Notes: generated from the sequence alone by a model not told the origin. DNA of 64,000 nt from a virus (IMGVR_UViG_3300042449_001328:25690-89689); one strand, 5' to 3'; shown: positions 7,178-25,747, numbered from the stretch's first letter. A program made the numbers and translations.

Positions 7178-8578
7178 TCACTTTTTAGGAAATTTTAGTG
7201 AAATTTTAAAATCTTCTTTTTCTTGATCGGTTTTTAAAGAATCGAATTTATCTAAATTATTGTTTCTTTCTTCTGTGGTTTTACCCCAATCCAGATTGTT
7301 CATAAATACTTTTTTATTTGACTGGTCTAGATGGGATTCAAAAGACTTCTTGCCATGCAATACCGTTGAACCGTCTGCGTCTTTTTTGTGATAATAGGTA
7401 TAGTGTGCGTCTGCTGCGTCTTTATGATCTTGTTTTGAAAAGTCTTTGTAAGAATCGTGGTCTGCTGTTCTGTTTTCGTAAATAGGCTTCCCACTTTTTG
7501 TATGTCCAATAATTTTCCCGCCCCTTGACCCCTCACCGCCTTTCATGAGATCGTAATTTGAGTTAGATTTTTTTAAATTAGATTTTTCTTCACGATCCGC
7601 TGCTGCATGAGTTAAATGACGATGAACTTCATGATCTTCAAGATACGCATTGTGTTTAATAGCAGTGCTTTTATCTTTATTGGGAGCCATCATGTATCTT
7701 GAATAAGAACCTTTATCTTTGCCTTTATTAGGCTGTATATGTTCTATTTGTTTATGACCTTGGTAATCAACTAAGGTTTGATGATTTTCACCAGATTTTA
7801 ATTTTTCCAAAGCCTGATCTGCATAATCTTGATGCCTTTTATAAATTGGAGACCCGCTTGAGGTATGCCCTAAAACCTCTCCACCTCTACTGCCTTCACC
7901 GCCCTTCATGAAGTCGGGGTCTGAGTCGGATTTTTTGATTGAATTACCTATTTTTGCAATTCTATCATAAGTTTCTTTTTTCTTTGCTTCAGAATCAGCT
8001 ATTATTCCAGCAACTTTTTTATGAACTTCCGCATTCTTTTTATTTCCTGCTTTCTCATGATGAGCGGCGGCGTCTCTATGATCTTGTTCACTCCAATCTA
8101 ACATAGATGGATGATTTTTTTCATAAATAGGTTTGCCACTCTTTGTATGCCCAATGATATGGCCTCCACGAGAGCCTTCGCCTGATTTGGCTTTGATGAG
8201 GTCGAGGTCTGAGTCGGATTTTTTAACATTTTCTGTATGCTTTTCTAACTCATGATCGTCATATACTCCATCTCCTCCACCATCATAGTATACACGAAAA
8301 CGTTTTCCGCCAATTAGTTCTCTATGTATCTTGCCAATAAATGTAGAACCATTAGGCGTTTTACCAGTAACAATATCACCAACCTTATGTCTTCCTGAAC
8401 CAACTCCACCTTTAACTAGCAAGTTCTCAAGCTGCTCTTTTGCGCTCTCAAAAGTTTGTTCATCAATCAAACCTTTGTTGAAGTTATCTGTAATGATTTG
8501 AAGTGGAGTTCTGTCTTCTTTAAAAGAACCTAAGATATTGTGGCCTTGATAGTCAGCTTTTGAAATTATGTTATCCAT
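7178..8578 (-). CDS. Modular putative internal head polyprotein (3 GGEGSRGG-IGHT-SG-PIY modules)
   Basis: Repeats preceded by LIK/A, FMK/G, LMK/G linkers; His/Lys-rich; embedded among neck/tail genes. Confidence 0.65.
   Translation of the reverse strand: MDNIISKADYQGHNILGSFKEDRTPLQIITDNFNKGLIDEQTFESAKEQLENLLVKGGVGSGRHKVGDIVTGKTPNGSTFIGKIHRELIGGKRFRVYYDGGGDGVYDDHELEKHTENVKKSDSDLDLIKAKSGEGSRGGHIIGHTKSGKPIYEKNHPSMLDWSEQDHRDAAAHHEKAGNKKNAEVHKKVAGIIADSEAKKKETYDRIAKIGNSIKKSDSDPDFMKGGEGSRGGEVLGHTSSGSPIYKRHQDYADQALEKLKSGENHQTLVDYQGHKQIEHIQPNKGKDKGSYSRYMMAPNKDKSTAIKHNAYLEDHEVHRHLTHAAADREEKSNLKKSNSNYDLMKGGEGSRGGKIIGHTKSGKPIYENRTADHDSYKDFSKQDHKDAADAHYTYYHKKDADGSTVLHGKKSFESHLDQSNKKVFMNNLDWGKTTEERNNNLDKFDSLKTDQEKEDFKISLKFPKK
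8163..8223. repeat. 61-nt exact direct repeat, copy 1 (encodes KSDSDLDLIKAKSGEGSRGG)
   Basis: Identical to 14122-14182; partial third copy near 7918-7935. Confidence 0.9.
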
Positions 8579-8582
8579 ATTG

Positions 8583-23369: not shown

Positions 23370-25747
23370 AAAAAACCGTCTTCTGACTTTTTTATTTTAG
23401 TCTTTGCTTGTTCTGCTTTCCTAATCTCTATTTCCCTTTTTGCTGCATTACTTAATGTAGGATCTGAATGTGATTTCATTTTCATCAAAATATCATTTGA
23501 CGTCCTACCAGCGTGTTCAGCTAGTTTTTCAGGTGAATGTTGGAATTTTCCCTTGCTGTTAGCTTTTTGTTGATCGTTATTTTCAGATTTAGAGATTAAA
23601 GTTTTTTTCTTTAACCTACTCTCCCACAAAATTTTACCGTCAGGGGTTAAGACATTATCATTTTTTACAAACTCTAGGCCATGTTGTTTTTCTGCTAATT
23701 CATAAAGCAATGAACCTATTCCTTGACCCCTATGATTTGGATCTACTTGTACAGTTGTAGCTATTAAATTCGGTTTGAATTTGTTTTTTATATAAGTCAT
23801 GTCTCCCACATGATTGTTACCTTTTTTAGCAATAATTTTATATTCATTGTCATCCAAATGCTTTATATGAAATGAAGCATTTTCTCCATTTTTAAGTTTT
23901 TTTTCATAAATAGGGTAACCTAAGTTTGTGTGACCTACAACAATTCCACCCCTATCCCCCTCAGCTTTTTCGAGATCGTTACTCTCACCCTTCTCAATTC
24001 CAAAATACTCTTTTAAGTGTTCTTTAGTGTCTTTAAATAAATCCGCTGCCATCCACTCGTTTACTGACATAAACTTTAATTGAGTAGCTTCGTTTTCTAA
24101 ATCAATGTTAGCTAGAGGTGAAGTGCCTAAGTCTTGATAGAAATTTATGCAGTAACCGTTTAATGTTTGACCTGTTGGCAATTGCTTAGTGTAGCATGGA
24201 ACTAGATAAGAGGATTTGTCAATGTCTAGATTTGTTTCTTCTTTGAATTCCCTGAATGCTGCTTCGTCTGGTCTTTCATCTCCGTCCACATGACCTCCAG
24301 GCAGCATCCATTGTCCGTTATCTTCTCTTTTCATTAAAAGCAACTTTCCTTCGTGGTCTGTGTAGATAATTGCTACATAGTCTCCTTCGGCTTTTTTTAG
24401 CTCGTTGCTTAATTCTTTCTTTTGCTTTTTAGCCTCTTTCTTTTGCTTTTCATCGTCATCCTCTTCTAGTATTTTTACTAGGTTCTTATGCTCTTCGATG
24501 AATTCATCTTTTGGGATTTCAACTTTTTCAGACTTTTTTATTTCACCTGAGATATGTTTTTTTACCGTATCTACTATTTGTTGTATAGAATCTCCTTCTT
24601 TAACATCTATATTTATAAACTCAACATTTGGGTGTTCTTTTTTTATTTCTTCAAACGAAGTCTTATTTCTCCTATAATCTGAATTATTAAAATCGCCTAC
24701 AGTAACATTGATTATCTTTTTCAACCCATCATCTTCAATGTCTGAATTAAAGTTGCTCCAATCAGGTGTATGGTCTTTCACCCTTATTCCTATATCTCCA
24801 AACCTAGCATAGCCTTGATTCCCTAACGGGAAACCTAATGAGGCTTGTATGTCAAATTCAGCTTTAACTTGATTTTTTTCATCTAAATCGTAATCTTTGA
24901 ATTTATGACCCGATAAAGCTGATTTAAAAGTAGTATGCCCTCTTACTCCACTTCCAATCCCTCCCTTACTCAACTCTATCTCCACAGCTAGTTGATATAC
25001 TCTTTCGGCTGATTCTAGGTCTAGGTTGTGAGATTTTTGGAGGTCGATTAGGATGTCGGCTTTAGAAACTTCCTCTTTTTCAACTTGAGTTTTATGGTAA
25101 TTTTCACTCATTCTATGAGCAGATTCATTAATGCTTGAATCTTTTATTTTACCATCACTGCGAGTACCATGTTTTTTATAAGAATCTGTTAATATTTTAT
25201 TATGAGCATTTTGAGCATCTATATGGTCTTGTTTTGAAAAACTCGCATAATGATCCAAAACTTTTGATTTTGTTCCAGGTTTTAAATGAGATTCATAAAT
25301 CGGTTTATTTGATTGCGTAGTCCCTATAACTTTTCCGCCTTTAGAACCAACGCCGCCTTTCTCAATTAGCTCCTCTAACTCCTTCTCAGCTTTTTCTATC
25401 CCTTCGTGAAACTTAGCTACCTTATTGATAAACTTATCTTCGTTCTTAGATCTCTTTTCTTGAAGGATTTGTTTTGTGGCTTGGATTTCTTCGTTGCCTT
25501 CTGATTTAACTAGGGCTTGATCGCAGGCTTGAATTTTAGATTCAAATTCCTGATCTATTTCATCGAAGTTTTCGATTGCTTTTTGCAAGTCCTCTTTGCC
25601 TAACTCAATTACCTCCTCCAATGCCTCTGCTTTGCGTAGTTCTATTTGATCGGCAGTAAGATTGTTGCCTTGTTCATCTTGGATAACAACTCCGGGGATT
25701 TCTTTGATAGTGCCAAAAGCATTACGGATAGTTGAAAATAAATTCAT
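23351..25747 (-). CDS. Modular putative internal head polyprotein with NUDIX and GNAT domains
   Basis: Nudix box GGHVDGDERPDEAAFREFKEETNL; GNAT motif A VDPNHRGQGIGSLLY; two IGHT-like modules; many xK/[AGS] linkers; late promoter 25780-25792. Confidence 0.8.
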   Translation of the reverse strand: MNLFSTIRNAFGTIKEIPGVVIQDEQGNNLTADQIELRKAEALEEVIELGKEDLQKAIENFDEIDQEFESKIQACDQALVKSEGNEEIQATKQILQEKRSKNEDKFINKVAKFHEGIEKAEKELEELIEKGGVGSKGGKVIGTTQSNKPIYESHLKPGTKSKVLDHYASFSKQDHIDAQNAHNKILTDSYKKHGTRSDGKIKDSSINESAHRMSENYHKTQVEKEEVSKADILIDLQKSHNLDLESAERVYQLAVEIELSKGGIGSGVRGHTTFKSALSGHKFKDYDLDEKNQVKAEFDIQASLGFPLGNQGYARFGDIGIRVKDHTPDWSNFNSDIEDDGLKKIINVTVGDFNNSDYRRNKTSFEEIKKEHPNVEFINIDVKEGDSIQQIVDTVKKHISGEIKKSEKVEIPKDEFIEEHKNLVKILEEDDDEKQKKEAKKQKKELSNELKKAEGDYVAIIYTDHEGKLLLMKREDNGQWMLPGGHVDGDERPDEAAFREFKEETNLDIDKSSYLVPCYTKQLPTGQTLNGYCINFYQDLGTSPLANIDLENEATQLKFMSVNEWMAADLFKDTKEHLKEYFGIEKGESNDLEKAEGDRGGIVVGHTNLGYPIYEKKLKNGENASFHIKHLDDNEYKIIAKKGNNHVGDMTYIKNKFKPNLIATTVQVDPNHRGQGIGSLLYELAEKQHGLEFVKNDNVLTPDGKILWESRLKKKTLISKSENNDQQKANSKGKFQHSPEKLAEHAGRTSNDILMKMKSHSDPTLSNAAKREIEIRKAEQAKTKIKKSEDGFFLNSLF

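Follow-up and report, generated by a model that had tools for sequence, protein, structure and literature searches.

Three candidate polyproteins encoded among phage head and neck genes

The DNA analysed here, termed the window, is a stretch of 64,000 nt corresponding to bases 25690-89689 of the 89,689-bp viral IMG/VR record IMGVR_UViG_3300042449_001328; coordinates below are positions in the window. The genome record is estimated to be 91% complete, its minus strand carries nearly all genes, and 121 open reading frames (ORFs) were called across its whole length. Three of these, at 7178-8578, 13635-14615 and 23351-25747, are designated polyproteins 1, 2 and 3. An earlier note on this sequence had described them as strings of modules, located among head and neck genes and separated by linkers consisting of a hydrophobic residue, any residue, lysine and a small residue. 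All three ORFs are present on the minus strand with translations in agreement, their neighbours are the genes for protease, scaffold, capsid, neck and sheath, and all eleven linker types listed occur at the kind of position described. From the sequence comparisons presented below it appears probable that the three polyproteins are substrates of a Lys-specific prohead protease and are packaged in the capsid.

Polyprotein 1 starts with a leader of about 55 residues ending in LLVK56/GG (the slash marks a predicted cut), followed by a small Gly-headed beta domain (residues 57-120) and three modules, which are separated by double sites flanking 9-residue acidic spacers (VKK/SDSDLDLIK/A and similar). 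Across the polyproteins, spacers between double sites are 8-9 residues long and acidic: SDSDLDLIK, SDSDPDFMK, SNSNYDLMK and GESNDLEK. The leader of polyprotein 2 ends in LLVK61/GG and is followed by module 1, a disordered linker with K146/S and K155/A, and module 2, which is continuous with a confidently predicted His-rich helical bundle (162-326). AlphaFold modelled this protein with a mean pLDDT of 80.9; leader helices, both modules and the C-terminal helical bundle were confident, and K61, K146 and K155 fall in the sole internal stretches of low pLDDT (63-65 and 116-161). Searches with the whole model yielded nothing below E 0.9 in Foldseek, and in VIA-align generic helical hairpins only (Z <= 10.2, residues 253-326), which is below the level meaningful for helical bundles. 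A stretch of 102 nt forming a spacer-site-header cassette (8122-8223 and 14081-14182) is 87% identical between the genes for polyproteins 1 and 2, while the seven module cores are otherwise 62-74% identical in DNA. Judged by this likeness, a recent exchange between the two genes is suggested.

Polyprotein 3 consists of a leader of about 125 residues, a module, a peptide resembling the protease tail, a GGIGSG-headed domain, a NUDIX domain, a module hairpin fused to a GNAT acetyltransferase, and a basic tail. The NUDIX domain starts 6 residues after LKK452/A and ends 10 residues before IEK586/G. For residues 262-410, feature scores in the ESM Atlas did not exceed 0.84 and weak Toprim- or CbiX-like structural matches (TM 0.41-0.53) were obtained, which provide a lead only. 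Only two relatives of near length were found. They share the 125-residue leader and the NUDIX domain with polyprotein 3 and differ in the cassettes between, which comprise a GGPGSG-headed helical unit, DUF6496 and a P-loop ATPase. NUDIX begins right after K/AE(G)D in all three proteins, and BLAST blocks stop exactly at K261 and 4 residues before K586. By these alignments, the candidate sites bound units generally and not modules alone.

A conserved module with a glycine-rich header

The earlier note had counted seven modules. Exactly seven of the form GEGSRGG-x-VIGHTKSGKPIY were detected in a six-frame scan of the 89,689-bp genome for the core G-x-G-S/D-R/K-G-G-x-(V/I)-(I/V/L)-G-(H/T)-T-x-(S/L)-(G/N)-x-P-I-Y, and all are located inside the three ORFs: three in polyprotein 1 and two each in polyproteins 2 and 3. 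The unit proved to be longer than noted, since the consensus of 71 aligned copies continues H-x-x-H-x-x-F-T-x-x-D-H-x-D-A-x-x-x-H. The AlphaFold model of the module, based on these 71 rows, reached a pLDDT of 87-91 over residues 11-50 and consists of a beta hairpin (IGHT / KPIY) and two helices, the first short and the second long. The folded part comprises about 45 residues; the highly conserved header GGEGSRG was modelled with low confidence. Gly-rich headers are also present without the module, namely GGVGSGRH in polyprotein 1 (residue 57) and GGIGSGVRGH in polyprotein 3 (residue 262), and GGPGSGR headers were seen in relatives. Predicted products containing the module have 85-171 residues, 6-11% His and a pI of 8.7-9.6, except for one with 6.8. 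The module may with equal likelihood be an internal protein made in abundance for itself or a header that can be attached to various cargo.

The profile search proposed in the earlier note was performed with 1.84 billion cluster representatives and revealed 2151 proteins with the module at E <= 1e-3, 1203 of them at E <= 1e-10, containing up to 12 copies and up to 3753 residues. No Pfam or PHROG match was obtained for the module or for polyproteins 1 and 2, the best hit of a profile search of the PDB had an E value of 0.21, and four motif strings of the module were not found in the literature searched. Among 185,579 species genomes, only two contigs of metagenome-assembled genomes (Flavobacteriales and Bacteroides) harbor the module, which fits virulent phages of Bacteroidota. 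No module was detected at E <= 1 in Chryseobacterium phage MA9V-3.

Over-representation of a lysine motif

Occurrences of [LIVFM]-x-K-[AGS] were compared with the numbers expected from 500 shuffles within each protein. Counting this motif in head versus other proteins had been put forward as a check, and the excess turned out to be confined to the scaffold, the protease, the portal and the three polyproteins (Table 1). These six proteins together contain 55 matches with 14.7 expected (3.75-fold), and the remaining 115 ORFs 103 with 93.9 expected (1.10-fold). Control motifs showed no excess in the same six proteins, neither the reversed motif (1.10-fold) nor hydrophobic-x-R-[AGS] and hydrophobic-x-E-[AGS] (0.54-fold each), nor variants with an acidic (hydrophobic-x-K-[DE], 1.13-fold) or a hydrophobic P1' residue (1.04-fold). 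Both the motif and the set of proteins are thus specific, and Lys-rich or helical composition does not account for the excess. One match in polyprotein 3, K511, sits inside the NUDIX domain and is probably due to chance rather than a real site.

For replication, 73 distinct IMG/VR loci were collected by a pattern scan with the module alignment, and their ORFs were labelled by phmmer against the proteins of the window. The ratio of observed to expected matches was 5.1 for the protease (17 proteins, many with fused scaffold), 4.5 for the scaffold, 3.7 for protease-module fusions, 2.4 for module proteins (73), 1.8 for the portal and 1.55 for the capsid protein. Unlabelled ORFs gave 1.45, and sheath and neck proteins 0.7-1.4.

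Candidate sites in capsid protein, scaffold, portal and protease

The sites that the earlier note had placed in the head proteins were all retrieved. The capsid protein carries LLK27/A28 near its N-terminus, and 11 matches were found in the scaffold, for which about ten had been reported. Those in the protease are at residues 15, 142, 165, 177, 215 and 254. In the portal, whose gene lies outside 7178-25747, they are located near the N-terminus (24, 30 and 42) and the C-terminus (529), with four more in between.

Among 20 capsid proteins of module-bearing phages, the first 20-40 residues or so are variable and close with (L/I/N/T/A)-x-K-A, after which a conserved body begins. K27 and A28 are invariant in a 19-row alignment, directly behind the variable putative propeptide, and the capsid protein of MA9V-3 has the same boundary (...MELQK/AMQAGQITGRDTT). 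The comparison with Cps of Listeria phage A511, for which cleavage at K23/S24 had been cited, holds by the mat_peptide annotation of record NC_009811, in which mature Cps begins at nucleotide 45361, corresponding to residue 24 (...EDALK/SFTTGYG); the hydrophobic residue of this site is at P2 and not at P3.

In 20 aligned proteases, K15 (in an N-terminal site ...EIEK followed by G, S or A), His66 and Ser124 (GFSIEG) are invariant; His66 and Ser124 are presumably the catalytic pair. The sites at K165, K177, K215 and K254 are beyond the catalytic core. The protein matches PHROG 1028, 'head maturation protease', with an E value of 4e-32, and because of this match and the conserved His and Ser it is regarded as a distant HK97/S78-type enzyme, with a predicted specificity for Lys. 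Four of the 20 protease relatives match PF04586 (Peptidase_S78) at E <= 0.1.

Near-copies of the mature capsid N-terminal arm were noticed in two proteases. The A511 enzyme (L082, NC_009811, 5443-6237) has one right after FMK/S (SWTTGHGTTPDTQVNAGALRRE vs SFTTGYGITPDTQTDAGALRRE), and the protease polyprotein of locus L052 (629-3925) likewise contains FKK/AMEAGSVTGTETTNQ. By this resemblance, the near-copy may be how the protease joins the shell. The L052 polyprotein has 1098 aa and is composed of protease, module, capsid N-arm mimic, tail-like peptide, modules, tail-like peptide and a P-loop ATPase, which also ends P0231, one of the relatives of polyprotein 3. In MA9V-3 (L007, PV245944.1; 9619-11931), NUDIX is encoded by a gene of its own, and the next gene downstream codes for a fusion of protease and scaffold containing 14 or more matches to x-K/[SA]. 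This phage is tractable for testing the Lys rule.

Sites and gene context in relatives

When 267 distinct modules, taken from the loci and from the first search for homologues, were inspected, K-[AGS] was present within 12 residues upstream in 257, with a hydrophobic P3 residue in 214. Among the 216 modules of the best 101 cluster representatives, 188 have K-[AGS] within 8 residues upstream. Twenty-five proteins open with a short leader (10-28 residues) that is followed by the site, and two representatives start with M-GGEGSRGG or M-AGEGSRGG, so that removal of Met would give the N-terminus of the predicted cut. A minority of modules is preceded by x-D-[AQ]-G-G or M-x-N-D (L049 6536-9459; P0051, P0160, P0201 and P0224). 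At L049, three small module genes with hydrophobic leaders flank the portal gene of a high-GC phage; no protease or capsid gene was seen at this locus.

Markers for head, neck or tail are present in 59 of the 73 loci. The module ORF was found by a regular expression in 64 of the 73, and in 34 of these it neighbours such a marker or is fused to it; in 15 it lies directly beside the portal. At four loci, L024, L035, L052 and L064, the module is part of the protease polypeptide and placed right after a site such as IEK/AGEGSRGG. In L024, the order within the polypeptide is protease, module, scaffold.

These arrangements bear on the possibility that no cleavage takes place at all. The motif and the Gly-rich header would then be a conserved repeat start, and the polyproteins full-length neck or head decoration or internal proteins. 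The Lys precedes a highly conserved header and could belong to the module, polyproteins 1 and 2 are encoded among neck and tail genes, and the virion RNA polymerase of phage N4 is packaged unprocessed (PMC5512222, accessible part). The spacing between Lys and header varies, however, from 0 to 7 residues (mostly 1-2 in the 267 modules), and the same motif bounds units other than modules, such as NUDIX, the tail-like peptide and C-terminal tails. It is also over-represented in scaffold, protease and portal, which lack the module, and double sites flank short acidic spacers. Uncleaved proteins are therefore considered quite unlikely, and processing by the prohead protease is retained as the more probable explanation.

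Candidate cargo domains and putative prohead-entry signals

Polyprotein 3 is the only one of the three combining two unrelated enzyme domains in one polypeptide. Its NUDIX domain (PF00293) scored 54.4 bits (cut-off 21.1) with the box GHVDGDERPDEAAFREFKEETNL intact except for Asn in place of the last Gly, and the GNAT domain (Acetyltransf_1) 24.3 bits (cut-off 20.7). Pfam searches recognised no enzyme domain in polyproteins 1 and 2, and no MPTase, MuF or LPD families in any of the three at E <= 0.1. A survey of 29 of the longest module-bearing representatives revealed NUDIX in four, Zeta_toxin in three, LPD1 and LAGLIDADG_3 in two each, and DUF2213, DUF6582, DUF5661, DUF6496, AAA_33, Fibritin_C, AAA and a weak Kinesin match once each. 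A ferritin-module fusion and DUF6496 were also seen in relatives. The presence of LPD1 and the pairing of NUDIX with GNAT, which is noted in the accessible part of PMC5512222, tie the module family to phage-type polyvalent proteins.

Two elements common to several of these proteins were detected. The leader of about 55 residues in polyproteins 1 and 2 (...K-G-L-I-D...K-A...Q-L..L-L-V-K/GG) recurs in module proteins from five further loci. The final 42 residues of the protease were used as the seed of a jackhmmer search, which retrieved this peptide in four places, with the consensus S-K-x-E...L..E-H-N-L-D-x-E-S-A-x-R-V..L...I. One is the C-terminal end of the free-standing L014 protease, two are in the protease polyprotein of L052, and the fourth is at residues 227-261 of polyprotein 3, between two sites (E 1e-14; the database was small). 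The shared leader and the tail-like peptide are candidate signals for entry into the prohead, in analogy to T4 capsid-targeting sequences and to the tails at the C-termini of prohead proteases. Complex prediction of the capsid protein and the scaffold with the tail-like peptide gave 0.07 and 0.03 with a mark of 0.32 and was not used as evidence either way.

The composition of the polyproteins is also relevant to a second alternative, in which they are auxiliary scaffold or core proteins that are chopped at the Lys sites, the peptides leaving the head before DNA packaging instead of being delivered as effectors. The motif density of the polyproteins resembles that of the scaffold, the module is located between protease and scaffold in the L024 polypeptide, polyproteins 1 and 2 are devoid of a recognisable enzyme, and propeptide fragments leave the head of phage SPN3US (PMC10052503, accessible part). 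Against such a role, no sites are found inside the modules and the helical bundle, which are units of 85-171 residues with confidently predicted folds, whereas the scaffold has a site every 10-40 residues, and NUDIX, GNAT, a Zeta-toxin-like kinase and ferritin in polyprotein 3 and its relatives have no obvious function in assembly. An auxiliary scaffold is thus regarded as unlikely, and packaged substrates of the protease remain the preferred interpretation.

Gene map of the phage and a neighbouring metallopeptidase

The positions of the polyproteins, their parts and other genes are listed in Table 1. The capsid protein is closest to that of Chryseobacterium phage MA9V-3 (54%), followed by Bacteroides DAC phages (39%) and SPO1-like Bacillus, Listeria and Staphylococcus phages (31-35%). 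At the DNA level, megablast with window positions 13000-20000 detected no relative in the phage collection. The virus is a myovirus of about 90 kb with a capsid of the SPO1/A511 type, and its closest cultured relative by capsid protein infects Chryseobacterium.

Table 1 Polyproteins, their parts and other genes in the window; motif matches are observed vs expected numbers of [LIVFM]-x-K-[AGS]
Feature	Position	Strand	Description	Motif matches	Basis
Polyprotein 1	7178-8578	-	466 aa	9 vs 2.72	
Module copy	8003-8194	-	polyprotein 1, residues 129-192		
Module copy	7721-7912	-	polyprotein 1, residues 223-286; helical half diverged		
Module copy	7358-7549	-	polyprotein 1, residues 344-407		
Polyprotein 2	13635-14615	-	326 aa	5 vs 1.73	
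Module copy	14250-14441	-	polyprotein 2, residues 59-122; first row for fold prediction		
Module copy	13962-14153	-	polyprotein 2, residues 155-218		
Polyprotein 3	23351-25747	-	798 aa	16 vs 4.74	
Module copy	25175-25366	-	polyprotein 3, residues 128-191		
Protease-tail-like peptide	24962-25084	-	polyprotein 3, residues 222-262; bounded by VSK229/A and LSK261/G		
NUDIX domain	24020-24376	-	polyprotein 3, residues 458-576		
Module hairpin only	23786-23977	-	polyprotein 3, residues 591-654; fused to GNAT start		
GNAT acetyltransferase core	23672-23866	-	polyprotein 3, residues 628-692		
Major capsid protein	16276-17781	-	501 aa; predicted maturation site LLK27/A28		
Coiled-coil scaffolding protein	17820-18548	-	242 aa	11 vs 1.97	
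Prohead serine protease (head maturation protease)	18611-19477	-	288 aa	6 vs 1.64	
Portal	40779-42437	-	552 aa	8 vs 2.07	
HExxH zincin metallopeptidase (C-terminal)	21042-23180	-	712 aa; directly downstream of polyprotein 3	4 vs 3.66	
MuF/SPP1 gp7-like minor head protein	38572-39495	-			
Tail sheath	4246-6213				family search
Neck and virion proteins	8603-15458				family search
Large terminase	48728-50260				family search

Several further features were noted. A homing endonuclease gene (6224-7129, minus strand; PHROG 314, E 3e-45) is inserted between the genes for the tail sheath and polyprotein 1. An AT-rich intergenic repeat of 46 nt occurs at 7131-7176 and 18580-18625, just upstream of the homing endonuclease gene and of the scaffold gene; its copies are 76% identical, and it may be a late promoter or a regulatory element. 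The portal-MuF block is separated by about 20 kb from the capsid block, and DNA methyltransferases, a nucleotide-sugar epimerase and a Stealth-like protein are encoded in between. The ORF at 19504-20997 (minus strand), next to the protease gene, is not the portal, which is encoded at 40779-42437. Its product, encoded between the protease and the HExxH protein, has 497 aa, is beta-rich and rich in Gly, Thr and Ala, shows weak matches to virion and tail PHROGs, and looks like a fibre or decoration protein. Another HExxH protein (38113-38562, minus strand; 149 aa, HELFH) follows the MuF-like gene.

The 712-aa protein carries LAHEFAHF in a DUF6782/M78-like domain (E 1.6e-4) and matches the C-terminus of a 1394-residue PHROG family; a homologue is part of a 1719-aa protein beside the portal in L012 and L013. 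The position of its gene raises the possibility that the polyproteins are processed by this zincin-like metallopeptidase, or by the small HExxH protein, and not by the prohead protease. MPTase domains have been argued to process polyvalent proteins (PMC5512222, accessible part), and LPD1 was present in two of the 29 long relatives. However, the junction motif is that of the capsid maturation site, the scaffold, the protease and the portal, and it is the serine protease to which the module is fused in four loci. Homologues of the 712-aa protein, counted as one family by sequence homology, are located within 10 kb of the module in three of 73 loci vs 27 of 73 for the protease, and the 712-aa protein itself shows no motif excess. 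Processing by a zincin is accordingly judged very improbable, and the prohead protease is favoured as the processing enzyme.

A model for processing and packaging

The comparative evidence, that is the motif excess, its replication in 73 loci, the K/A boundary of the capsid protein, the four protease fusions, the leaders and the tail peptide, fits the view of the earlier note that the polyproteins are prohead-protease substrates; for delivery with the DNA, which that note had included, analogy is the only argument. Its statement that many small effectors would be released was too strong: NUDIX and GNAT are the only recognisable ones, and most of the predicted products consist of the module with a His-rich helical tail.

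In the proposed pathway, address elements, namely the leader shared by polyproteins 1 and 2 and the copy of the protease tail in polyprotein 3, would bring the precursors into the assembling prohead. There, as suggested by motif statistics and conservation, the serine protease would cut after Lys in hydrophobic-x-K/[A/G/S], the same signal by which it would remove the 27-residue capsid propeptide and dismantle the scaffold. Cutting is predicted to free about seven basic, His-rich proteins of 85-171 residues, each beginning with the Gly-rich header GGEGSRGG followed by the folded hairpin-plus-helix module, and in addition a NUDIX hydrolase, a GNAT acetyltransferase with the module hairpin at its head, and two further domains. 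The products would remain in the capsid and, by analogy with T4, phiKZ and SPN3US, probably leave with the DNA.

A number of observations weigh against this model. The Lys site is missing in 10 of the 267 modules and in 28 of the 216 from the best representatives; in some of these, x-D precedes the header. Being conserved, K-[AGS] in front of the module could simply form part of the repeated unit. The seven sites linked to modules belong to homologous repeats and, for this reason, are not independent counts. Three of the 115 remaining ORFs also reached p <= 0.01, a 71-aa ORF outside the window, the ORF at 51223-51576 and an exonuclease (51602-52777), where about 1.2 would be expected by chance from 121 tests. 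With 17.6 bits (E 0.0044), the protease stays below the cut-off of 21 for Peptidase_S78, and it had no match among PDB sequences. The zincin gene downstream of polyprotein 3 offers an alternative processing enzyme. The module is absent from a collection of 50,697 phages, searched with polyprotein 2 at E <= 1e-5 and with the relative P0007 at E <= 1. Finally, Foldseek searches of the PDB and BFVD with the module gave no fold match (best E 2.3-4), which is weak evidence because a fold of 45 residues is hard to match.

Comparison with known systems

The T4 internal proteins IPI-III and Alt carry capsid-targeting sequences and are trimmed by the prohead protease gp21. As in T4, small basic proteins and enzymes are encoded with the head genes, a short leader ends in a protease site, and one tripeptide signal is found in scaffold, capsid protein and cargo. 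In contrast to T4, P1 is Lys instead of Glu, the protease is of the distant HK97/S78 type, and the cargo, known here from sequence alone, is concatenated with up to 16 candidate sites and bears a conserved Gly-rich header and module, which are not known from T4.

In HK97, the capsid protein is cleaved at K103/S104. The HK97 gp4/gp5 system and A511 Cps resemble the arrangement proposed here in that a Ser protease belonging to the same broad family uses Lys as the P1 residue when it removes a capsid propeptide, but the substrates known there are capsid, scaffold or delta domain, protease and portal, and not strings of cargo modules.

Encapsulin cargo-loading peptides are short peptides on unrelated cargo destined for the lumen of an HK97-fold shell. 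The likeness, a short Gly-rich peptide on unrelated cargo including ferritin-like proteins, is one of analogy only, and no sequence similarity is claimed; the header of the phage proteins is placed after a protease site and followed by a folded module.

For the giant phages, gp245 of SPN3US is described in the accessible part of PMC10052503 as a protease with cleavage after A-x-E that trims off its C-terminal propeptide and acts on several motif copies within long propeptides. The ejection (E) proteins of SPN3US, phiKZ and 201phi2-1 are processed at A-x-E by gp245/gp175, and the products are ejected with the DNA (same source). A prohead protease acting on many head proteins, the portal and its own C-terminal propeptide, cuts at repeated sites in long propeptides, and ejection of the products with the DNA are common to these phages and, as proposed, to the phage studied here. 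The latter differs by its genome of 90 kb, the Lys-based site, and a repeated small module in place of large paralogous E proteins.

For polyvalent proteins, the accessible part of PMC5512222 (Iyer et al. 2017) regards zincin MPTases as the principal agents of processing, with assemblin-like peptidases at some C-termini; no cleavage motif is given there. Polyvalent proteins likewise combine unrelated enzyme domains in one late polypeptide (NUDIX and GNAT here; Zeta toxin, LPD1 and ATPases in relatives), are encoded next to portal and MuF genes, and are predicted to be packaged, processed and delivered. The module with GHT-SGKPIY is outside the Pfam LPD families, however, and the fused protease is N-terminal. 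The accessible part of PMC12282133 contains nothing on cleavage.

Against the literature searched, four points appear to be new: the Lys rule for cargo, the concatenation of one module, the module with its header, and the copy of the protease tail in a cargo polyprotein; the supplement of PMC5512222 may list the module. The system is not new in kind, given the internal proteins of T4, phiKZ and SPN3US and the polyvalent proteins, and its importance is limited, as the trimming of internal proteins by a protease is well established for T4 and giant phages.

Implications

A more far-reaching suggestion, which we regard as rather doubtful, is that the Gly-rich header, with or without the hairpin-helix module, serves as a general 'cut here and keep' label of an undescribed cargo-loading system in thousands of uncultured phages with Lys-specific HK97-type proteases. 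If so, any domain behind hydrophobic-x-K/GG-x-GS-R-GG would be freed inside the capsid with a defined Gly N-terminus, retained perhaps by binding of the RGG-like header or the His-rich module to DNA or shell, and delivered with the genome. Such a label would correspond, in phages, to the cargo-loading peptides of encapsulins and could be adapted to load foreign proteins.

If the cuts themselves are real, chosen proteins could be loaded into capsids, and the polyvalent-protein concept would be linked to a prohead serine protease rather than to a zincin peptidase. A module known from 2151 cluster representatives would gain a biological context, and a simple rule, hydrophobic P3, Lys and a small residue, would predict the mature virion proteome and the injected proteins of uncultured phages of the Bacteroidota type.

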